This document shows, one piece after another, positions 3,155-64,000 of a stretch of DNA of 64,000 bases. Origin of the DNA: Desulfonatronospira sp. (GTDB taxonomy: Bacteria; Desulfobacterota; Desulfovibrionia; Desulfovibrionales; Desulfonatronovibrionaceae); contig PUMA01000181.1 of assembly GCA_003551155.1 (NCBI GenBank), forward strand, positions 800 through 64,799. The letters are read 5' to 3'. The notes beneath the pieces are model-generated. The model had not been told where the DNA came from. It ran no database searches and saw only the letters and a list, made by a program, of their open reading frames with translations. The stretch's first letter is position 1, and the number at the start of each line of letters is the position of its first letter. A program made the translations under genes and the position numbers.

Positions 3155-4603
3155 CTATTTGCCCATGGTCTCCAAAACATTGCCAGAGGCATCCAAAATG
3201 CTCACCTCTACGTTCAGACCGCCGTCCAGGCGGTGAGTAGCACAGCTCATTCACGGGTCGTAGGCGCGTATGGCCATCTCCACCCGGTTCAAAAGCCCCT
3301 GATCGTAGTTTCCGTCCTTGATCACAGCCTTGGCCGCCTGCCTGACAGAGAGGTTCATGGGTGCATTGTTGTGCGTGGTGCCCACGATAAGATTGGCCAT
3401 GGTCACAAAACCGTTGTCATCGGTCTTGTAGTGATGGATCAGTGTACCCCTGGCAGCCTCGACACATCCGACCCCTTCACCGGCCCTGGGCTGGATGTCT
3501 TTGCACCTGATTTCGCGTCCGGTGATCTCCGGATCATTCAGGAGCTCCTCGGCCCGCTCGCAGGCCTGGACCAGTTCGATCAGCCTGGCCCAGTGGTACA
3601 GAAGGGTCAGATGTGTGGGCCGGCCGAATTCCTTGCGGAAAATGTCCAGTTCTTCCTGGGCCATGGGGGTGGCCATTTTGTCGCAGACATTTATGCGCGC
3701 CAGGGTGTTGGCCCGGTATACGCCCACTGGGTCGTTCTCGTCCAGCTTGAGGGCTCCCCATTTCCTGGCGTAGGGGAATTTCATATAGGACCACGGTTCG
3801 GTATGCTCTCCGATATAATTCACGTATTCGGAATACTTGAACTGGTCGAATTCTCCGTTCTGGTCCATGAGCCTGAGTTCGCCGTCGTACAGCTCCAAAG
3901 CGCCGTCCGAGGGACGAACAGTGCCCAGGTAGCCGGAAGGAAATACTCCCAGGACCTTGACTGCGTCCAGATACTTGGGAAAGACCTCTTCCCGGGCGAA
4001 CTTGATGGTGAACAGACTGAACTCCTTGAGTTCCTGGATGCCTTCCAGGATCTCCCTGCGTTCATCTTCTTTCAAGGGTTTGGAAAATCCCCCCACCACC
4101 CCGGCTATGGGATGAATCACCTTGCCGGCGAATTTTTCCAGCATCATCTGGCCCTTGTAGCGCATATGCACCACTTTCTTGGCCAGTTCCGGGTTCGCTC
4201 CGACAATGCCCACAACGTTGCGCACGGAATAGTCCGCATCCGGTCCCAGGACGAAATCCGGGGCAGCCAGAAAGTAAAAGTGCAGGATTTTGTCCGGGAT
4301 ATAGGCCATCATCTGGCACAATTCCCTCAGTTTTCTACCCGTAGGGGGCAGTTCCAGGCCCAGACACTCGTCTGCAGCCTTGTTGGCAGCCAGGTGGTGC
4401 TGCCAGGGACAGATCCCGCATATACGGGTTACTATCCTGGACACCTCCTCCACCGGCCGGCCCAGCACAAACTGTTCAAACCCGCGCAGAGAAAGAACGT
4501 GCAGCCTGGCGTCTGCTACATTTCCGGAATCATCCAGATGTATGGCCACGCTGGCGTGCCCCTCAATGCGGGTTATAGGAGCTATATTCAGTGTCTTACC
4601 CAT
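3155..4603 (-). CDS. mvhA: Mvh-type (group 3c) [NiFeSe] hydrogenase large subunit, selenoprotein, 482 aa with UGA read-through
   Basis: TRIEGH and RICGIC (L1 motif). The ORF 'stop' TGA at 3251-3253 continues in frame as AYDP-U-MSCATH-RLDGGLNVEVSILDASGNVLETMGK-TAG(3155-3157), i.e. the L2 motif plus a cleavable C-terminal tail. Confidence 0.93.
3218..3234 (-). promoter_or_regulatory. SECIS-like hairpin of mvhA
   Basis: ACCGCC-TGGAC-GGCGGT, perfect 6-bp stem starting 16 nt after the UGA. Confidence 0.8.
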
Positions 4604-4605
4604 AT

Positions 4606-5544
4606 CTACCTCCTGACCGGTCTTTTCAAAACGCCGTGGGCCCCTGAAAAACGGGCCAGGTACCCCCGGCGGTCTGGCATCTTGTTCGGATCAAAACCCA
4701 CCGAAGCCAATGCTCCCATGTAGTCCACCAGGGGCTTGGCGCCTTTTCTGACGGGGCCGTAGCATCCTCTGCACGGAACCCGGGCGGCAATACACCTGGG
4801 TGCCCCCTTGTGTCCGCCGCAACCGACCCCGGTCACCGGGCCCAGGCAGAGCAGACCCTGCTCCAGCAGGCAGCGCATCTCATCCAGGGGTCTGTCCGGA
4901 TCATATTCCGGGGAAGCCAGCATGCGCTTTATGTCTGACAGCCCCTTTTTGCTTTCCCTGATGGTAGGGCAGGCGTCGCACACGGACTTCTCCGGCATCC
5001 TGTATTCGGTTTTGCCTTCCAGGAGGGCCAGCACGGCCCCGGTAATCCAGTCCGGATGAGGTGGGCAGCCAGGCAGATACAGGTCGACATTGACCAGCTC
5101 ATCCAGGGCATAACACTGATCCAGCAGGGGCGGAATGTGCTCCGTGGGGTAATCCGCAGGATCGGTGGTGGGTGAATCCTTGTAATAGAACTGCTTCAGG
5201 TCTTCGTCGGAATACATGTTGATCATTGCCGGAATACCACCGTCAGTGGCGCATGTCCCAAGGGCGATGAGAATCTGGCATTTTTTACGCATTTCCAGAA
5301 GCACCTCCCTGTGCTCTTCGTTGCGCACGCCTCCGGAAACAATGCCCACCACAGCTTCCGGGATGCTCAGCTCCTTTTCCTCACCGGTCTGTCCGAAATA
5401 CTTCTTGTCCAGAATGACCGGGATGTGCACGAATTCCAGGTTGTTGACCAGAAGATCCACCAGGACATCTCCCACGTTGAGTATGGCGATTTCACATCCG
5501 GCACAGGCGTTAAGCCATTCTTCGGCTACAGTTACTTTAGTCAT
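4606..5544 (-). CDS. mvhG: Mvh-type hydrogenase small subunit
   Basis: WLNACAGCE, ALGTCATDGG, YLPGCPP, CLGPVT, CRGCYGP Fe-S motifs; upstream of mvhA. Confidence 0.92.
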   Translation of the reverse strand: MTKVTVAEEWLNACAGCEIAILNVGDVLVDLLVNNLEFVHIPVILDKKYFGQTGEEKELSIPEAVVGIVSGGVRNEEHREVLLEMRKKCQILIALGTCATDGGIPAMINMYSDEDLKQFYYKDSPTTDPADYPTEHIPPLLDQCYALDELVNVDLYLPGCPPHPDWITGAVLALLEGKTEYRMPEKSVCDACPTIRESKKGLSDIKRMLASPEYDPDRPLDEMRCLLEQGLLCLGPVTGVGCGGHKGAPRCIAARVPCRGCYGPVRKGAKPLVDYMGALASVGFDPNKMPDRRGYLARFSGAHGVLKRPVRR

Positions 5545-5567
5545 ATAAGTACCTCCATTAAGGACGA

Positions 5568-6020
5568 TTAGGCCCGGGCTGCCTGTCGGACGTTAACTGC
5601 CCCCTGGCGGGCCTTAAGCGGATTAGGCCCAAGAGACCTGATCTTTTCCGTAAACTCGGTGACCAGTTTGGCGAACCTGGGAGCCTCTGCCGAAGATACC
5701 CAGTCAATCCTGAACCTTTCCGGGTCGATTCCCAGATCCTCCAGCACCAGTTTTACGGCCTCTCCCCGGGCGTATGCCTTGTGATTACCTTCCAGGTAAT
5801 GACATTCACCCAGGTGTCAGCCCAGAACCAGTACGCCGTCGGCACCCTTTTCCAGGGCCTCCACAACCAGGTTGGGATGCACCATTCCCGAACACATTAC
5901 TCTGATGGCGCGCATGTTGGGTGGATACTGCAGCCTGGATACTCCGGCCAGATCCGCTCCTGCATAAGCGCACCAGTTACAGAGAAATCCGATAATGACG
6001 GGTTCTTTATTTTCAGCCAT
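5568..6020 (-). CDS. mvhD: MvhD [2Fe-2S] subunit, selenoprotein, 150 aa with UGA read-through
   Basis: FLCNWCAYAGAD...RVMCSG...GADGVLVLG-U(TGA 5817-5819)-HLGECHYLEGN...GIDPERFRIDWVSSAEAPRF...TAA(5568-5570); U sits in the first Cys position of the GCHxGxCHY motif. Confidence 0.93.
5784..5800 (-). promoter_or_regulatory. SECIS-like hairpin of mvhD
   Basis: ATTACC-TGGAA-GGTAAT, perfect 6-bp stem starting 16 nt after the UGA; same geometry as the mvhA hairpin. Confidence 0.8.
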
Positions 6021-6037
6021 GAAACCTTCTCCTTTTT

Positions 6038-9000
6038 TTAAACATTCTCCAGAGCCGCATGCACCTGGGCTCTGAGCTGCTCATTGGTGAAGCCGTGCAC
6101 GAAAACGCCCTGCTTGGGACAGGTGGCCTCACAGATGCCGCAACCCTTGCACAGGGCTTTGTTGGTCTCGATTTTCTTGTGCATGGCCTCGTCACGCTCG
6201 TAATCTGTCAGGGTTATGGCCCCATAAGGACACGTGTCCACGCAGATGGCGCAGCCGTCACAATTTTCAGTAACAAAGGACTTGATGGAATCCAGGGGCA
6301 TGACCGCCCTTGAAAGTATGGTGGAGGCCCTGGAAACGGCTGCCTGGGCCTGGGCGATGCATTCATCCACTGGCTTGGGGTAATGGCACAACCCGGCCAG
6401 AAACATGCCGTCCACGCTCATGTCCACTGGGCGCAGCTTGGCGTGGGCTTCCTGCAGGAAGCCATCACTGTTCAGCCCGCACTTATAGAGCTCAACAAGG
6501 TTCTTATGGTCAGCCGGAACAACAGCAGAGGCCAGAACCAGATAGTCCGGCCTGATTTCAACATCCCGGAAAAGCACGTGATCGCGGGCCACAACCAACA
6601 GATCATCTCCGTCCCTGGACACCCTGGGCTTATTTTCCAGATCGTACTGAATAAAAATTACTCCCATTTCCCGGGCTTTCTGGTATAAATCCTCCCGGGC
6701 ACCGTATGTTCGTATATCGCGGTAAAGCACGTATACCGGCATTCTGGGACTGGCTTTTTTCAGCTCAATGGCCGAATGCACGGTATGGGTGCAGCAGATC
6801 CGACTGCAGTACGGACGTTCAGGCTCCCGGGACCCGACACACTGGATGAACACGGCTCCTTTGGCCTTTTCCAGGGCCGGCCTGTGCTCAGAGATTTCCC
6901 TGTCAAACTCAAAGTGGGTGAACACCCGGTCGTCCTGACCGTATAGATATTCCTGGGGCTTATATTCCTTGCCTCCGGTGCAGACCACGGCAATGCCGTA
7001 CTTGATTGCCTTTCTTTCTCCATTTACCTCGATTTCGCTGACAAAATCACCCACAGAGCCCTTGTTGGTCTTAAGCTCGGCATTTTTGTAGACTTTGATT
7101 CTGGAATGGTTTTCCACCCTGGCAATGAGATTCTCCAGATAAGGACGGATCTCTTCCCCCCGCCAGGTTGTGACCAGGCTCCAGGCATTGCCGCCGAGCC
7201 TGTCCGACTTTTCCAGGAGATAGGTTTCATAGCCCTGGTCTGCCAGCCCAAGGGCAGTGACCATGCCGGAAATTCCACCGCCCACCACCAGTGCACTCTG
7301 ATTCACATTGACCGACAAATGTTCCAGGGGCTCCAGCATAGAAGCCTTGACCACTGACATGCGCAGCTGGTCCCTGGCCTTTTCAAGAGCCTTTTCCGGC
7401 TCTTTGCCGTGAACCCAGCTGTTCTGGTTGCGGATATTGGCCATCTCAAACAGGTATTCATTGAGCCCGGAATCCTTCATGGTTTCCCTGAAGAGAGGCT
7501 CGTGGGTCCTGGGTGTACAAGCGGCCACAACAACCCGGTTCAGATTGTGTTCCTGGATCTTTTCCTTGATCATGACCTGGGTATCCTGGGAACAGGAAAA
7601 GAGATTGTTTTCCACAAAGACCACATTGGGCAGCCCCTTGGCGTATTCCACCAGCTCCTTAACATCTATGGTCCCGGCAATGTTGATGCCGCAGGAACAG
7701 ACGAAGACACCTACCCGCGGCTCTTCCCGGGCAACATCTCTTTCAGGCGGGAAGGTTCTCTCATGGGTCAAAGAGCCCCTCTGGTTGATAAGGGCTATGG
7801 AGGCCGAAGCTGCTGCTGAAGAAGCCTCGGTAACTGACTGGGGGATATCCTTTGGACTCTGAAAACATCCGCTGGCGTAAATCCCGGGCACATTGGTGGC
7901 CGCAGGAGCAAAACTGGAGCTCTGGGCGAAATGGTACTTGTCCAGTTCCACACCCAGGGCTCTGGCCAGCTCCATGGAGCCCTTGGTCACTTCCAGGCCC
8001 ACGGACAGAACAAGCATATCAAAGTCTTCCTTAACTCTCTCCCCGGTCTGGTCGTTGAAGTATTCCACGACAACTCCCCCCTTCATTTCCGGGATAAGCC
8101 GTGTGGATGCGGCTCTGGATAAAACGGATCCCTTTTTCCCTGGCCTGCTCATAGTATTTGTCAAACTCTTTGCCGTGGGTGCGGATGTCCATGTAGAAAA
8201 TCGCCTGGTCCATATCCCCGGTGGTATGCTCGGAAGTAACCAGGGCCTGCTTGATGGCGTACATGCAGCATACAGAGGAACAGTATCCATTGTCGCACTT
8301 GTTGATGTTTCTGGAGCCCACGCACTGCAGCCAGGCGATTTTCCTGGGCTCCTTTTCGTCCGAGGGACGGACCAGGTGACCCATGCACGGACCATTGGAG
8401 GAAAGAAGCCTCTCATATTCCATGCTGGTAACCACGTCCTTGAACTGGGAATAGGCATAGGTGTCGAAAACCGAAGGATCAAAAGGCTTGAACCCGGGAG
8501 TCAGGATGACTGAGCCTACGTTAATCTCCTTGATCTCATCATCGAATTCCTGGTCCAGATCAATGGCCCCGGTGGGGCAGTACTTTTCACAGGCCCTGCA
8601 TTTGCCCTTGCCCTTGACTCCCTTGTTGCCGCCCTTGACAAAGAAGATACAGGTTTTCTTTTCAATGACTTACTTCAAAGGCACTGTCTGGCCGTACTTG
8701 ATATAGGCCGACTTGCGCTTGTCCAGGCCTTCGTTGAATTCATCCGGAACCTTTTTGGGACATTTTTCAGCACAGAGATTACAGGCTATGCATTTGTCCA
8801 TGTCCACAATACGCGGCTTCTGGCGAACCCTGACAGAGAAGTTGCCTTCCTGTCCGCTGATGCCCTCCACCTCGGCCAGAGTGAGAAGCTCAATATTTAA
8901 GTGCCGACCGCACTCAACCAGTTTGGGCGAGATGATTCACATGGCACAGTCATTCGTGGGAAAAGTCTTGTCCAGCTGGGCCATGGCCCCGCCGATACCG

Positions 9001-57046: not shown

Positions 57047-59272
57047 TCACTGCCCTTGAATCAGGCTGGCTTCCCGCACCGGACGGCCGGTGCTGGCTCC
57101 CCCCTTGGCCTGGCGGCGCCTGGCGTGCAGTATGGGCTCGGTATAACCGCCGGGCTGCAGGCGTCCCTTGAACACCAGATCGCACGCAGCCTGGAAGGAT
57201 GCACTGTTTTCAAAATCCTCAGCCATGGGGCTGTACCCTGGATCATGGCCATTCTGACGGTCCACAATCCGGGCCATGCGCATCAGGGTCTCCAGGACCT
57301 CTTCCCGGGTGCATACCCCATGGTGCAGCCAGTTGGCTATGTGCTGGCTGGAGATGCGCAGGGTTGCCCTGTCCTCCATCAGGCCCGTGTCATTTATGTC
57401 CGGAACCTTGGAACAGCCTATGCCCTGCTCCACCCAGCGCACAACATAACCCAGAATGCTCTGGGCATTGATCTCCAGTTCCTCGCGGATTTCCTCCGCA
57501 GAAGGTACACCCTCTCTCAGCAGGGGCAGGATCAGAAGATCGTCCAGACCGGTTCTGCGCTGCCTCTGCAGCTCTTCCTGACGGGCAAGCACATCCACCT
57601 GGTGGTAGTGGGTTACATGCAGGGTGGCTGCAACCGGCGAAGGCACCCAGGCGCAGCTGGCCCCGGCCAGGGGATGGGCCAGCTTGTCCCTTACCATTTC
57701 CAGCATCTCGTCAGGCTTGGGCCACATACCCTTGCCTATCTGGGCCCGCCCGCTGAATCCGCAGGCCAGGCCCACGTCCACGTTTTGATCCTCATAGGCC
57801 TGCATCCAGGGTTCTTTTTTCATGTCGCCTTTGCGCACCATTGCTCCAGCCTCCATGCCGGTGTGTATCTCATCCCCGGTGCGGTCCAGAAAGCCGGTGT
57901 TGATGAAAATGATCCTTTCCCGGGCCGCCCGGATGCATTCCTTGAGATTGAGGCTTGTGCGTCTCTCCTCATCCATTACCCCGATTTTAACAGTATTACC
58001 GGGCAGACCAAGAAGCTCTTCCGTCCTGGCAAAAAGATCGCAGGTAAATGAGGTCTCTTCTGGTCCGTGCAGCTTGGGCTTTACAATGTACAGACTTCCG
58101 CAGCGGCTGTTGCGGTACCTGCCTGTGCCTTTCAGGTCATGCAGGCCTGCCAGGGAGGTGATCAGGGTGTCCAGGATGCCTTCGGGAATTTCCCGGCCCC
58201 GGGAATCCAGGACAGCATCCGTGGTCATCAGGTGGCCCACAGTGCGCACCAGCATCAGGCTGCGCCCAGGCAGTTGAAAGTTTTTGCCCTGAGGGGAAAT
58301 GTAGTGTCTGTCCGGCTTGAGCACGCGCCTGACCAGCCTGCCCCCCTTTTCAAATGAAGTCTCCAGGTCGCCCTTGAACAGACCCAGAAGGTTGCGGTAG
58401 ACTAGGACCTTGTCCATGGTGTCCACTGCAGCCACTGAATCCTCCAAATCCAGAATAGTGGTTATGGCCGCCTCCAGTACCACATCACTGACTCCGGCCG
58501 GGTGGTTCCGGCCTACGGGATCCTGAGGGTCTATGCTGATTTCCATGTGGAGCCTGTTATTGCAGAGCAGAATTGCTTCCAGGCTGTTCTTTTTCCCGGC
58601 ATAGCCGGCAAACTGCCGGGGTTCCCTGAGCCGGACAACTTTTCCGTCCTTGAGGCTCACCAGCAGCTCAAACAGCCCTGATCCGGCTGTCAGCTCAAAA
58701 CCTGCAGCCTCATTATACGAGCCCACCTCGAGAGGAGCAGCCCGGTCCAGGAATGCTGCTGCGGAATGGACAACAATGGCCCCGCGCACCGGATTGTATT
58801 CCTGTCCTTTTTCCGCACCTTTGATCGCAGGAATGACATCAGTTCCGTAAAGTGCATCATAGAAACTCCCCCACCGGGCGTTGCACGCATTCAGGGCATA
58901 ACGGGCATTGTCCACCGGCACCACAAGCTGAGGTCCGGGAATGGAGGATATTTCCCGGTCCACATTCTCCGTCTCTATGGTGAAATCCTCTCCTTCAGGC
59001 TCAATATACCCAGTATCGTATAAAAAGGATTTGTATGCTTCAGGATCATGCTCCTTTCCCTTCCTTTCCATGTGCCACCGGTCAATGGACTCCTGCAGTT
59101 CCTGCCTCTTCTGCAGCAGCCGGGCATTGGCCGGCCCGAATTCCAGAACGATTTTTTCCAGGGCCTGCCAGAAGTCGTCAGGATCAACGCCGGTTCCAGG
59201 AGCCATCTCGCCATCCACCAGCTCAGCCAGAGGCCTGGCTGCCTGCAGCCCTGCCCTGCGTAGGTATTCCAT
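57047..59272 (-). CDS. glcB: Malate synthase G
   Basis: [73 protein letters not shown]; GGAGG before ATG 59272. Confidence 0.96.
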
Positions 59273-59468
59273 TAAAACCTCCCTTTTCAGATATGTTGCA
59301 TCTGCAGCACATGTCTGCTGCATTACCGGCATGCACTCCACACAGTTTCAGGACATGCGCCGGTCTTAAGCCCCCGGACATCACTGCAGGGCTGCACTTA
59401 TGCAGCCCGGCCAGGATTGCCCGGACTCGATGCGCCCTGAAAGACGGTCCTTCCGGGTATCCTGAGAA

Positions 59469-61094: not shown

Positions 61095-62945
61095 TCAGCT
61101 AAATAATTGCTCCTGCTCATGCATTCTTGATACCGCGCTCCTGGCCCAGCTGCTGAGCTGGGTGATGGCATTGGAATTGACGTCAGGACGGGCGTCAGCT
61201 GCATTGAACCACAGTTTGCCTTCCACGGGAATTCCCAGGGCACAGATATGGGGGTGGGGCCGGCCGTTCTTGTCCATGAGGTGAAAATCCCTGGTGACAT
61301 CCAGCCCGCCCGTCTCCAGGGTCCCGGTGTCATCGGCATTGGTATATGTGCGGATCATTTCGCGCCTGAACATGTTCTGAATCAGAGACGAGGTATCATT
61401 TTTATTGTCCACGCTGTGGATACGGCCATTGATAATGTGGTGAACCTGCCTTTTGGAGCCGGGAACCTCGGGACTGGATATTTCAAAGATTCCGTCTTGT
61501 TCATTAAAACCGATCCGGGGAGAAGGGCCGGAAAAGGAAACAAGCCCCTGGTCTGCCAGGATCAGCAGTTCCTGCACGCTCTGAATGGGAGGACCCACAG
61601 CGACTCGGTTATTGGTGCGTTCGAATCTTTTTTTCAGGTATCCATGAGAAGAAGCGGTCAACCCCCCGTGATCCACGGCGTATCTCAATACATCTCTGAG
61701 ATCCCGCAGCACTGAATCCACGGCGTTTTTCAGGGGACTGCGCATGTTTCCCCTGCCGGCTTCACGGAGATCATTCCGGATCTCATCCATTACAAAGTCT
61801 GTGTATTCCTTCATGGATGCAAAAAGAGGGCTACCAGGGGTTCTTTGAGCTTCAAGCCGCCACAGGGGATTTTCCAGATCCTGCCAGCAGAAGCGGTCTT
61901 CTGCATCAAACCTGTTTTCCACCAGAACCTGCCGCTGGGAGGAATCTCTGCACTCCAGGTACTGCTGAGCAAAATCATCCCCGGCAAGGGTCTTATAATA
62001 CACGTATTCCATTTCCTGCAGGATCAGGGGCAAAAGCTCCTTTTCAAAGTCAATCTTGCTTTTGTCCTGTTTCATCCTGTGCACAAGATCACGGGAAAAT
62101 ATTCTGCCCTGGTACTGTTCGGTTTTTTGGTTGAATCCGCGTGCGCAGTAAGGAAGTCCCAGCCTGGAGCCGATGATGATGTGCGGTTCGCTCCCGCCTG
62201 GTATGTATTCGCCGGATCTGAAAACTCCGCCGCGGCCATAGGTGAAGCCCTTGATCACGTCTGTGGCAGTAAGGCCCATGCCGATGACATAGACTGTCTG
62301 ACCTGCCTGTATGTGCGAAAGCTTTTCAGGAATGGGATAGGCCAGATGAAGGTAGGAAACAGGCCTTCCTCTCTGCTTCTGGACTTCTGCGAACTGATTA
62401 CACGAATCCTCGATGGAGCCGGGTATTATCCTGTTTATTGAATGGCCGGTGAGCAGAATGATCTCCCGGGCGTGTATGGCTGTATTGTCATCCAGATAAA
62501 CTGTCGGTGTATCTCCGGAACAGACGATATCCAGGGCTTCCGAGCTGTGGCGGTGAAGAAAGACCTTCTCAGGCAGATTCTGTTCGGTCCAGTCAAAACA
62601 TTCAGCCAGGTACCAGCCATGGAGGGCTCTGGGCGGAAAGTCGTTGGGGCCGATGGAGTAGCCCTGTTCCTGCAGATAGCCGTAAAGCGTCTTCCTGGAC
62701 GAGGAAGCACGTGCCTGGCTGTCATCATCACCAAAAGCGGTGATCTGGCTGGCAACGGTATTCAGCAGCAGGTAATGGGGCTGCTTGACGCTGTGGACTC
62801 CGCCTCCGCCGAAGCTTCCTGATTTTTCTATTACATGAATATGAACTTCTTTTTTGAGTGGCCTGTCCGCAAGGGCCATGGCCAGGCGCCGGAAACAGTA
62901 GGTGCCGCGGGGTCCTGCCCCGATTATGACCATATTGTGTTTCAT
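61095..62945 (-). CDS. FAD/NAD(P)-binding flavoprotein resembling CreE/FzmM (L-aspartate N-monooxygenase) family
   Basis: IGAGPRG, LLLNTVASQIT, PPRALHG, LTGH, GRGG, GSRLGLPY.ARG, LRDLRD.LR..VDHGGL, GPP, ETGGLDVT, GIPVEG..W..A.ARP; ATG 62945 after GAGGTGAGG. Confidence 0.75.
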   Translation of the reverse strand: MKHNMVIIGAGPRGTYCFRRLAMALADRPLKKEVHIHVIEKSGSFGGGGVHSVKQPHYLLLNTVASQITAFGDDDSQARASSSRKTLYGYLQEQGYSIGPNDFPPRALHGWYLAECFDWTEQNLPEKVFLHRHSSEALDIVCSGDTPTVYLDDNTAIHAREIILLTGHSINRIIPGSIEDSCNQFAEVQKQRGRPVSYLHLAYPIPEKLSHIQAGQTVYVIGMGLTATDVIKGFTYGRGGVFRSGEYIPGGSEPHIIIGSRLGLPYCARGFNQKTEQYQGRIFSRDLVHRMKQDKSKIDFEKELLPLILQEMEYVYYKTLAGDDFAQQYLECRDSSQRQVLVENRFDAEDRFCWQDLENPLWRLEAQRTPGSPLFASMKEYTDFVMDEIRNDLREAGRGNMRSPLKNAVDSVLRDLRDVLRYAVDHGGLTASSHGYLKKRFERTNNRVAVGPPIQSVQELLILADQGLVSFSGPSPRIGFNEQDGIFEISSPEVPGSKRQVHHIINGRIHSVDNKNDTSSLIQNMFRREMIRTYTNADDTGTLETGGLDVTRDFHLMDKNGRPHPHICALGIPVEGKLWFNAADARPDVNSNAITQLSSWARSAVSRMHEQEQLFS

Positions 62946-63166
62946 ATCCCTCACCTCAAAGATACGGCTGCCGGATTCCCGGCAGGCTCAAATTCAACTG
63001 TCCCTCTGTTCCTGATCTTTATTCTCACGGTTCCTTGCCGGAAGCAAGCTTATCGTGATCAAACCTCATCCACGGAATGCTTGAAAGCGCTATCCCCAGA
63101 GCCGGCTGACGGTAAAGACCCCAAAACCGGTGAAACAGGCTTCCAGCACAAAAGTTCCACTGCAGG

Positions 63167-64000
63167 CTACCCAAGAAAGCCGCGCAGCAGGGCAGCCCTC
63201 AATACCAGATCCCTGGCCTGGACCGAATCGCTGCTGTCCATGGCGCGGCCGAGCCTGCGGACAATGTCCAGATGATCCCTGCAGGCATTACATCCAAAAC
63301 CGGACGCATTCAGTGCACTGCGCAGTGATGCAGTCATTAAAGGCCCGTCAAAATCCGTAAAGCCCATGGCATATTCAATTTTAGCCCTGTAAGAGGGATA
63401 GGCTTCAAGAACGAATGCCAGGTCTGTTTTGCTCAGGGCATCGAACGCGATCAGTTCCGGAGGCATTCCTAGGGAATACAGGGCACAGGTGAACGAGATG
63501 GCTCGGGGAAGCCTGATTTTGCCCAGATCGCGGGCATAGCCGAAAAGACCGATATGCAGCTTGCGGGCGCGACGCGGGGGAACAAAACCGGCCATGCGGG
63601 AGATATGCGGCGCCAGTTCCAGAATGCGTCCTCGATAAGCCTCGCTGTAGCGCTCGATTACGGACAGGGCCCTTTCAGTATCCATGGGCGATGCAGGTCC
63701 TGCAGTGCGGCCCTTGAGATGTTCGCACGCGGCCCTCACCTCGTTGACCGGATAATCGAACTTGAAGGCCGACTGAATGGTGAAGGTAACCACGCTGGGG
63801 TATTCGCGGCCCACCCTCTCGGCGCTGCCCGGGGTTAGTCCCCCGCGGAAAGGCGCTGATCCCATGCCCAGGATGGGGTGAATGCGCACCCCGGTCCTGG
63901 CCGAAAGTTCATCGAACTGCGCCAGGGCGATCTTGTTCGCAAGTGCCGCCGAAACAAGGCCGAAGTTCATGGCTGTATCCGACCGCGCCAGAAACACCCG
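63167..64000 (-). CDS. ppcA: Archaeal-type phosphoenolpyruvate carboxylase (partial; 5' end beyond the window)
   Basis: VFLARSD.AMNFG, PILGMGSAPFRG, FTIQSAFKFD, RARKLHIGLFGYAR, LPRAISFTCALYSLGMPPE. Confidence 0.92.
   Translation of the reverse strand, partial: RVFLARSDTAMNFGLVSAALANKIALAQFDELSARTGVRIHPILGMGSAPFRGGLTPGSAERVGREYPSVVTFTIQSAFKFDYPVNEVRAACEHLKGRTAGPASPMDTERALSVIERYSEAYRGRILELAPHISRMAGFVPPRRARKLHIGLFGYARDLGKIRLPRAISFTCALYSLGMPPELIAFDALSKTDLAFVLEAYPSYRAKIEYAMGFTDFDGPLMTASLRSALNASGFGCNACRDHLDIVRRLGRAMDSSDSVQARDLVLRAALLRGFLG

Follow-up and report, generated by a model that had tools for sequence, protein, structure and literature searches.

An uncharacterised Desulfobacterota branch of the CreE/FzmM flavoprotein fold and its putative amine substrate

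Flavin-dependent enzymes of the CreE/FzmM type are the entry to biological nitrite, to diazo and N-N bond chemistry and to the toxin 3-nitropropionate and are, to our knowledge, so far known from aerobic actinomycetes and fungi. What, then, would a protein resembling them do in a sulfate reducer? The question is raised by a 64,000-nt stretch of contig PUMA01000181.1 (assembly GCA_003551155.1, positions 800 to 64,799) of a Desulfonatronospira sp., hereafter the window, which encodes a 616-aa flavoprotein on its minus strand. An initial interpretation made from the letters alone, referred to here as the sequence-only reading, had described it as a CreE/FzmM-like flavin N-monooxygenase, and had proposed either horizontally acquired N-oxidation chemistry or a new substrate or role. 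The comparisons presented below indicate that the protein is a homologue of CreE and FzmM and not their orthologue, and that it belongs to a separate branch made up of Desulfobacterota only. With a probability of roughly 0.55, it would use NAD(P)H and O2 to N-oxygenate a small anionic amine that is not L-aspartate.

Gene, fold and position in the family

An uninterrupted open reading frame (ORF) spans 61095..62954 of the minus strand, amounting to 619 aa when counted from a GTG at 62954. The product was set at 616 aa plus stop because the ATG at 62945 is preceded by a Shine-Dalgarno (SD) sequence, GAGGTGAGGG, and agrees with the N-termini of homologues. All eight motifs on which the sequence-only reading had based a full-length flavoprotein of ~616 aa were found, colinear with the crystallised enzyme: GAGPRG (residues 9-14), NTVASQ (62-67) and GRGG (237-240), followed by GSRLGLPYCARG, LRDLRDVLRYAVDHGGL, GPP, ETGGLDVT and GIPVEGKLWFNAADARP. 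ORF, SD and motif positions therefore bear that description out. Pfam detected only PF13454, the N-terminal FAD/NAD(P)-binding domain (E 2.4e-31, residues 6-168), and an NCBIfam scan of the protein returned nothing significant. The sole match of a phmmer search against all Protein Data Bank (PDB) sequences was 8cp2_A/8cp5 (E 1.3e-77, query 4-604 on chain 4-595), the L-aspartate N-hydroxylase of Streptomyces sp. V2, which is 54% identical to FzmM (PMC10404684). The same chain ranked first when an AlphaFold2 (AF2) model built from a 77-sequence alignment (pLDDT 94.2, pTM 0.91) was submitted to Foldseek (E 1.9e-54, template modelling [TM] score 0.88/0.91), the runner-up folds being DesB, PvdA, SidA and Baeyer-Villiger monooxygenases at TM ~0.4. 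The predicted architecture is that of FzmM, with three domains in which a large helical substrate domain lies between the FAD and NAD(P)H domains; the features of the class, namely the PF13454 GxGxxG motif, the NAD(P)H motif, the three-domain fold and Asn62, are present in sequence and model. Given the PF13454 and PDB matches, 149 homologues (E<=1e-10) and a model matching 8cp2_A, the motif series is not a product of chance, and the resemblance to CreE/FzmM holds as one of homology and fold.

In order to place the protein within the family, a word-indexed search covering 5.8 billion proteins was combined with profile searches and a phylogeny. The former yielded ~100 clusters (90% identity) at 49-71% identity, every named one from the Desulfobacterota (Desulfobacterales, Desulfonatronospira, Desulfovibrio sp., Thermodesulfobacteriota). 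Below this clade, identity falls to 36% and then to 31-34% for Streptomyces and fungal proteins. HMMER, run against 1.84 billion 50%-cluster representatives, delivered one full-length clade representative at 809 bits and the next protein at 360 bits, with 585 clusters at E<1e-30 for the family as a whole. Among the GTDB species genomes, 27 clade loci were recovered (Desulfobacteraceae, Desulfonatronospira, Desulfovibrionales, Syntrophobacteraceae), all in metagenome-assembled genomes (MAGs) or one single-amplified genome (SAG) and none in a cultured isolate. The ~100 clusters, ~150 invariant columns and SD sequences in front of the homologues establish that the gene is real, intact and maintained.

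A neighbor-joining tree of 161 family members (597 columns, 100 bootstrap replicates) separated five groups: the Asp-hydroxylase clade, its close sisters, a large Gln276/Asp413 group, a PcxL-like branch and a deep Desulfobacterota branch. The Desulfobacterota clade was monophyletic in 100/100 replicates. The Asp-hydroxylase group and its sisters excluded it equally often (100/100), exclusive sisterhood of the two was obtained in 0/100, and the best-supported sister group of the Desulfobacterota clade reached 19%. The resemblance to CreE/FzmM put forward in the sequence-only reading hence does not extend to membership in that clade, the protein sitting instead among uncharacterised PF13454 proteins. 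Our search of the literature on PF13454/NAD_binding_9 and CreE/FzmM/PcxL found no study of the Desulfobacterota clade.

Substrate pocket, lyase partner and predicted reaction

The entry chamber of the V2 enzyme binds L-Asp through Arg13, Arg276, Arg416, Arg577 and Asn413 (PMC10404684). Residue numbers of 8CP2 were rebuilt from the HMMER alignment, which reproduces 12/12 residues named in that study, and the pocket was compared across 59 clade members. Arg13, Asn62, Arg266, Arg409, Arg412, Arg416 and Arg577 are kept in all 59; Arg276 has become Gln in 56/59, with a two-residue loop deletion, and Asn413 has become Asp in 59/59. Three of the five L-Asp ligands (Arg13, Arg416, Arg577) are therefore retained and two replaced, both of which are retained in 15/15 Streptomyces and fungal sequences. 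The clade further carries His51, Phe571, Asn572, Asp575 and Asp579, and 57 positions tell it from the Asp clade. In the window protein, the loop SRLGLPYCARGFNQKTEQY lacks two residues relative to the Asp clade, and the segment WFNAADARPD differs from the Asp clade at Phe580 (= Val571), Asn581 (= Thr572), Asp584 (= Gly575) and Asp588 (= Gly579). Asp584 was encountered only in the Desulfobacterota clade, Asp588 also in one Asp-clade sequence and four sequences classed as other, and Asn581 is uncommon outside the clade. Wherever a member of the 161-sequence family alignment has a residue at the Asn62 column, it is Asn, the PcxL-type branch included, and the Gln276/Asp413 pair recurs, in the family-wide table, in a large uncharacterised group. 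Trp51His and Val571Phe had also been considered as oddities of the clade and were set aside, as they represent the common family state, PcxL-like proteins included, and mark only that a protein is not of the Asp clade; being the normal state in the PcxL-like branch, His51 and Phe571 provide no argument against oxygenase chemistry. As judged from these residues, the oxygen-activating class B machinery and the anion-binding arginine cluster are retained, and the part of the chamber that recognizes Asp is now less cationic and more acidic.

These replacements bear on the most immediate alternative, a functional L-Asp N-hydroxylase making nitrosuccinate as CreE and FzmM do. Asp N-hydroxylase is the only structural relative of the protein, and three of five Asp ligands together with the entire sulfate-binding arginine cluster are conserved. 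In the V2 enzyme, however, an acidic residue at position 413 (N413E) abolishes Asp hydroxylation and leaves NADPH oxidase activity intact, and Km is > 1 mM with N413A and > 4 mM with V571F (PMC10404684). The clade-wide Arg276-to-Gln and Asn413-to-Asp replacements, two more acidic residues predicted in the tunnel segment (Asp584 and Asp588) and the position of the clade outside the Asp group make L-Asp hydroxylation improbable. With respect to the resemblance claimed in the sequence-only reading, both clade placement and Asp-binding residues thus show that "CreE/FzmM-like" denotes the same fold and not membership.

The aspartate-nitrosuccinate (ANS) pathway has as its hallmark the adjacency or fusion of creE and creD (PMC11705231, PMC7347517). 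The oxygenase signature is RWNRRRRNRVTGR in all 11 recovered creE-creD neighbour loci (11/11); the window protein, which reads RHNRQRRDRFNDR, has 7/13 positions as in these operons and 6/13 not, a further point against L-Asp as substrate. No fumarate-lyase signature was detected in the 64-kb window and no genuine one in 28 clade loci (419 kb searched in all). One CreD candidate, GSAAMCSKPNP upstream of a Desulfovibrio sp. homologue (L024), was rejected as a chance match, lying off-frame within a DUF523/DUF1722-type ORF. Two natural oxygenase-lyase fusions (P0184 and P0188, SpiED-like, with GASSAMP[QH]KRNP in the C-terminal domain) provided lyase domains as positive control for the motif and as tblastn probe; the latter gave no match in the window and the 28 clade loci (best E 0.6). 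The earlier observation that the window holds no CreD-like gene is confirmed by both searches. In GTDB genomes, CreD-like genes at >= 48% identity were all actinobacterial, and the few Desulfobacterota lyase matches were 28-30% identical, the level of PurB or housekeeping enzymes, in assemblies without the oxygenase.

The missing lyase is not decisive by itself, given that stand-alone Asp-type genes exist in Streptomyces and that 3-nitropropionate is formed without lyase. The top-scoring Streptomyces homologues (P0116 and P0120) carry the full Asp-type signature and stand alone, without a lyase within 8 kb, so a lyase is not obligatory even for Asp-type enzymes, and their solitary state may be counted in favor of L-Asp here. 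The Asp-signature Streptomyces loci L062:8001-10452 and L064:8001-10452 have PhoD upstream and DoxX downstream. Were nitrosuccinate made in the absence of a lyase, it would spontaneously decarboxylate to 3-nitropropionate, a poison of succinate dehydrogenase and fumarate reductase, or slowly yield nitrite. In vitro, 3-nitropropionate is the main product without lyase (PMC10404684). On the combined evidence of signature and gene content, we conclude that the protein is probably no part of the CreE/CreD pathway.

A different small amine is the most likely substrate because the branch is separate, the pocket changed and the lyase partner missing from the loci searched. Of the two proposals in the sequence-only reading, the "new substrate or role" is retained; O2 scavenging, its example of a role, is the less favored possibility. 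In the favored N-oxygenation, NAD(P)H would reduce the FAD, and reduced flavin and O2 would form a C4a-hydroperoxyflavin, which Asn62 and bound NADP+ would stabilize. The arginine cluster would hold a small anionic amine, which would then slide to the flavin and be N-oxygenated, possibly repeatedly as in FzmM, and the reaction would take place only when O2 reaches the cell. L-Asp itself is disfavored because one cationic ligand is gone (Arg276 to Gln) and up to three acidic residues are gained (Asn413, Gly575 and Gly579, each to Asp). Such a chamber would suit a molecule that has one carboxylate less, or whose distal group is neutral or cationic and donates hydrogen bonds; Asn, 2,3-diaminopropionate, 2,4-diaminobutyrate and beta-alanine are candidates, as are aminosulfonates, for example taurine.

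The conserved arginines also weigh on a second alternative, in which the protein acts mainly as an NAD(P)H oxidase whose uncoupled cycle turns O2 into H2O2 for oxygen defence, with no dedicated organic substrate and with rubrerythrin-type enzymes then removing the H2O2. The NADPH oxidase side activity of the Streptomyces enzyme (0.13-0.19 s-1) does survive substrate-site mutations (PMC10404684), the gene stands alone without pathway partners, and in an anaerobic host lineage O2 would be a stress and not a resource. Yet the strict retention of six pocket arginines and of the helical substrate domain (59/59) would be difficult to account for if no substrate were bound, the family's oxidase rate is slow, and the clade loci show neither a shared PerR-like or other upstream motif nor adjacent oxidative-stress genes. 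Moreover, 27 species representatives are all in which the gene was recovered, a distribution unlike that of the oxygen-defence genes usual in sulfate reducers. Taken together, these points make an oxidase role unlikely.

The same arginine cluster could alternatively hold an oxyanion or N-O/S-O compound in an O2-independent, NAD(P)H-linked flavoprotein reductase, possible acceptors being nitro, nitroso and hydroxylamino acids or sulfur oxyanions. 8CP5 contains two sulfates beside the FAD, in the cluster that is invariant here, and sulfate at 5-10 mM inhibits the Streptomyces enzyme (PMC10404684). All carriers are Desulfobacterota MAGs, some of them from anoxic seep or enrichment communities, and Asp584, Asp588 and Asn581 are pocket residues of the clade's own. 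Nevertheless, a reductase has no precedent in the family, Asn62, the residue linked to C4a-(hydro)peroxyflavin chemistry, does not vary, the predicted cofactor arrangement is that of class B monooxygenases, and no electron-transfer or sulfur-metabolism partner is adjacent at any locus. A reductase role is accordingly improbable, and some probability is reserved for explanations other than the four weighed here.

Several observations weigh against N-oxygenation of a non-Asp amine. The N413E data come from a protein only 31-33% identical, Asp is shorter than the Glu tested there, and the pocket geometry has been read from the alignment to 8CP2 only. Sister clades with Asp413 adjoin nitronate monooxygenase genes, which fits a route from Asp through nitrosuccinate to 3-nitropropionate as well. 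The gene is carried by MAGs or a SAG of organisms presumed to be strict anaerobes, some from permanently anoxic settings, which makes an obligate dependence on O2 physiologically awkward. Finally, with no conserved neighbour and no regulatory motif, no pathway is corroborated.

Genomic setting and host

The coordinates of the gene, its motifs and selected neighbours are collected in Table 1. The window is core chromosome: it encodes LepA, TyrS, RNase Y, F1-ATPase subunits, RodA/PBP2/MreB, a Clp ATPase and CTP synthase, as well as KdsA, RpoN, RapZ, an AcrAB-TetR module, an Mvh-like NiFe hydrogenase and an HdrA-like protein. The GC content of the oxygenase gene is 0.529 versus 0.532 for the window, and that of its third codon positions is 0.61 versus 0.64-0.67 in neighbours. 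Recent horizontal transfer was rejected on account of these near-equal values and the housekeeping surroundings; coupled with the depth of the Desulfobacterota-specific clade, they run counter to the horizontal acquisition suggested in the sequence-only reading.

Table 1. Location of the oxygenase gene, its sequence elements and selected other genes in the window
Feature	Position	Strand	Remarks
CDS, 616-aa predicted FzmM-fold class B flavoprotein monooxygenase	61095..62945	-	Stop codon 61095-61097; PF13454, PDB match, homologues, AF2 model
Shine-Dalgarno GAGGTGAGGG	62948..62957	-	Two bases 5' of ATG 62943-62945; homologues have comparable SDs
FAD-binding GxGxxG motif GAGPRG, residues 9-14	62904..62921	-	Includes Arg13, entry-chamber residue conserved in all clades
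NTVASQ motif with putative catalytic Asn62	62745..62762	-	Equivalent residue lies over flavin C4a in 8CP2
Second dinucleotide (NAD(P)H) motif GMGLTA, residues 222-227	62265..62282	-	Aligns with GLGLNF of 8CP2
Predicted helical substrate-binding domain, residues ~267-451	61593..62147	-	Equivalent to 8CP2 264-447; AF2 model, Foldseek
Loop SRLGLPYCARGFNQKTEQY, residues 260-278	62112..62168	-	Arg269 (= Arg266 of 8CP2) retained; Gln277 in place of L-Asp ligand Arg276
Arginine-cluster helix VLRDLRDVLR, residues 412-421	61683..61712	-	Arg414, Arg417, Arg421 (= Arg409, 412, 416) retained; Asp418 in place of Asn413
Tunnel / entry-chamber segment WFNAADARPD, residues 579-588	61182..61211	-	Arg586 (= Arg577) retained
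GC-rich hairpin CTGCCGGGAATCCGGCAG, then CCGTATCTTT (weak T tail)	62968..62985	-	10 nt upstream of SD
Archaeal-type phosphoenolpyruvate (PEP) carboxylase (PF14010 PEPcase_2, 485 aa)	63167-64000, runs past window (L061:3459-4916)	-	Directly upstream of oxygenase
Malate synthase G	57047-59341	-	Two genes downstream; database call in L061 741 aa, start ~59272
B12-binding radical SAM protein with C-terminal tetratricopeptide (TPR) repeats, 565 aa	55152-56849	-	Between malate synthase G and TetR/AcrAB efflux module
Mvh-like NiFe hydrogenase and 814-aa HdrA-like flavoprotein with 4Fe-4S domains	3251-8482		Large subunit 3251-4603, small subunit 4606-5544

The Desulfobacterota host assumed in the sequence-only reading is corroborated by AtpD, which is 89% identical to that of a Desulfonatronospira MAG, 85-87% to Desulfonatronovibrio and 84% to Desulfohalobiaceae. 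DNA of the gene was found in salt-lake and soda-lake metagenomes only, and this habitat together with the AtpD kinship identifies the probable host as a haloalkaliphilic member of the Desulfovibrionales, abundant in a 2012 salt-lake metagenome (X1) to judge from a contig word depth of ~140. Its description as an anaerobic sulfate reducer derives from taxonomy and the Hdr/Mvh-type genes; the 64-kb window itself contains neither dsr nor apr genes. The Mvh/HdrA-like module resembles the bifurcation-type module typical of anaerobes. A longer plus-strand ORF (3233-4723) overlapping the hydrogenase large subunit is probably spurious.

Transcription of the oxygenase gene is weakly indicated by a single 197-nt contig from a soda-lake sediment metatranscriptome (run X8), which falls inside the gene (window 62207-62403; 8 mismatches, ~96% identity) and is too weak a basis for reading expression level or regulation. 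The same run also holds a short contig over 60803-60941, the 5' end of the GlgA-like gene. A sigma-70 scan of the 210-nt intergenic region upstream of the oxygenase revealed no promoter-like site, and the hairpin located there could end transcription of the PEP carboxylase gene or act as a translational/5'-untranslated-region element. Inverted-repeat and k-mer enrichment analysis of 26 upstream regions produced nothing shared beyond the SD sequence, and no sigma-54, Rex, CRP/FNR/HcpR or PerR/Fur-like pattern was seen among them.

The genes downstream on the same strand encode a GlgA-like glycosyltransferase, malate synthase G, the B12-radical SAM/TPR protein and TetR. None of eight window neighbours (PEP carboxylase, GlgA-like, malate synthase G, B12-radical SAM, TetR, AcrAB) was found by tblastn at the 27 clade loci, and the C4-dicarboxylate flavor that PEP carboxylase and malate synthase lend to the surroundings is therefore regarded as coincidence. 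All-versus-all clustering of flanking ORFs returned recurrent sets (a short-chain dehydrogenase/reductase, an RNase H-like exonuclease, AsmA, YchF) in 3-5 loci each; no flanking family occurs in more than 5, and the recurrent ones are housekeeping. The partners of sister clades (nitronate monooxygenase, a PNP_UDP_1 protein, a conserved membrane protein) are likewise missing from the window and the clade loci. The oxygenase gene thus behaves as an orphan accessory gene.

Related enzymes and significance for the family

Comparison with characterized systems delimits what the Desulfobacterota clade shares with each. With the CreE/FzmM/V2 enzymes (8CP2/8CP5), to which the S. cremeus panel enzyme (from the source organism of CreE; 50% identical to FzmM, PMC10404684) also belongs, it has in common the three-domain fold (TM 0.88-0.91), a full-length colinear alignment, the FAD/NADPH motifs, Asn62, and Arg13, Arg266, Arg409, Arg412, Arg416 and Arg577. 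The window protein differs from them in its separate clade and its identity of 31-34%, in the set Trp51His, Arg276Gln, Asn413Asp, Val571Phe, Thr572Asn, Gly575Asp and Gly579Asp, in a ~9-residue insertion in the helical domain, in having no adjacent or fused CreD/FzmL, and in a host from the Desulfobacterota and not from Actinomycetota or fungi.

PcxL-type enzymes, which share the PF13454 family, the architecture, His51, Phe571 and Asn62, likewise use a small anionic amine, PcxL acting on 2-aminoethylphosphonate (PMC10404684). They are longer (~700 aa) and distant (tblastn E 1e-33 to 1e-45, 25-34% identity), with the signature S-N-R-E-R-R-x-A-F-Q-A-R. The PcxL pocket of Ser13/Glu276/Ala416/Gln572 is not that of the window protein, which has Arg13, Gln277, Arg421 and Asn581 (own numbering). 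PcxL-type genes adjoin PEP mutase, a class-V aminotransferase and a thiamine pyrophosphate-dependent decarboxylase, whereas none of these is close to the gene in the window or at the 27 clade loci. About 20 such distant homologues (~700 aa) were collected in phosphonate clusters of Actinomycetota, Solirubrobacterales and a few others (L030-L058, e.g. L033:10001-15049 and L056:7736-12127), often with a PNPOx-like gene too. The siderophore N-hydroxylases SidA, PvdA, DesB and DfoA follow the same class B logic, with FAD and NADPH domains and retained NADP+, but are ~10-13% identical (TM ~0.4), belong to PF13434 instead of PF13454, possess a far smaller substrate domain and, encoded in siderophore clusters, use diamines or basic amino acids.

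Closest in their pocket are the Gln276/Asp413 clades (e.g. Pseudomonas tructae WP_130266142.1, Legionellaceae MDF1827408.1, Planctomycetaceae and Salinisphaera proteins), equally unstudied, which share Gln276, Asp413 and His51 (RNRQRRDR...) and differ in identity (33-38%) and in having Tyr at 571 and Leu, Val or Ala at 575, where the window clade has Phe and Asp. Several of their genes are directly followed by a gene of the PF03060 nitronate-monooxygenase family or one for a membrane protein; the Desulfobacterota clade has neither. At three loci (L147:6447-11201, L149:1792-6639, L066:8001-11193) an Asp413 oxygenase gene precedes orthologous PF03060 genes with 40-44% mutual identity, followed in two of them by a gene for a 628-648-aa PNP_UDP_1 protein. 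This arrangement may form a lyase-independent module leading from an N-oxygenated amino acid to nitrite. In P. tructae (L065:10037-11188) and a metagenomic locus (L148:9899-11176), a Gln276/Asp413-type oxygenase gene is followed by one for a predicted membrane protein of 383-425 aa; the two proteins are 33% identical to each other and have no Pfam domain.

Fusion proteins were also noted in the family (P0246, P0166, P0174, P0230, P0201, P0184, P0188). P0246, a natural fusion of nitronate monooxygenase and oxygenase with an Asp-type signature, suggests that N-oxygenated amino acids could be converted to nitrite without a lyase. In three proteins the partner of the oxygenase is the E subunit of glutamate mutase (Met_asp_mut_E), and elsewhere it is a pyridoxal phosphate enzyme (PALP); such fusions indicate functional couplings and hint at additional substrates, 3-methylaspartate for instance.

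For genome mining, the comparison furnishes a simple rule in the 13-residue signature, chiefly its Arg276 and Asn413, which sets genuine ANS-pathway enzymes (11/11 operons) apart from look-alikes in this data set. The significance of the Desulfobacterota clade is limited in that no pathway context or phenotype points to a product. A more far-reaching proposal, by which the clade would be an anaerobe-restricted branch of the nitrosuccinate-synthase fold with a new reaction, either N-oxygenation of a non-Asp amine (such as a diamino acid, beta-alanine or an aminosulfonate) or, more radically, an O2-independent, NAD(P)H-driven reaction of an oxyanion bound at the arginine cluster next to the flavin, is considered rather unlikely. 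If it were true by way of the amine route, sulfate reducers would produce a hydroxylamine, nitro or nitrite-releasing metabolite only upon intrusion of O2. The clade widens the substrate map of the family, and it raises the question of what role an oxygen-activating N-oxygenase would have in sulfate reducers.

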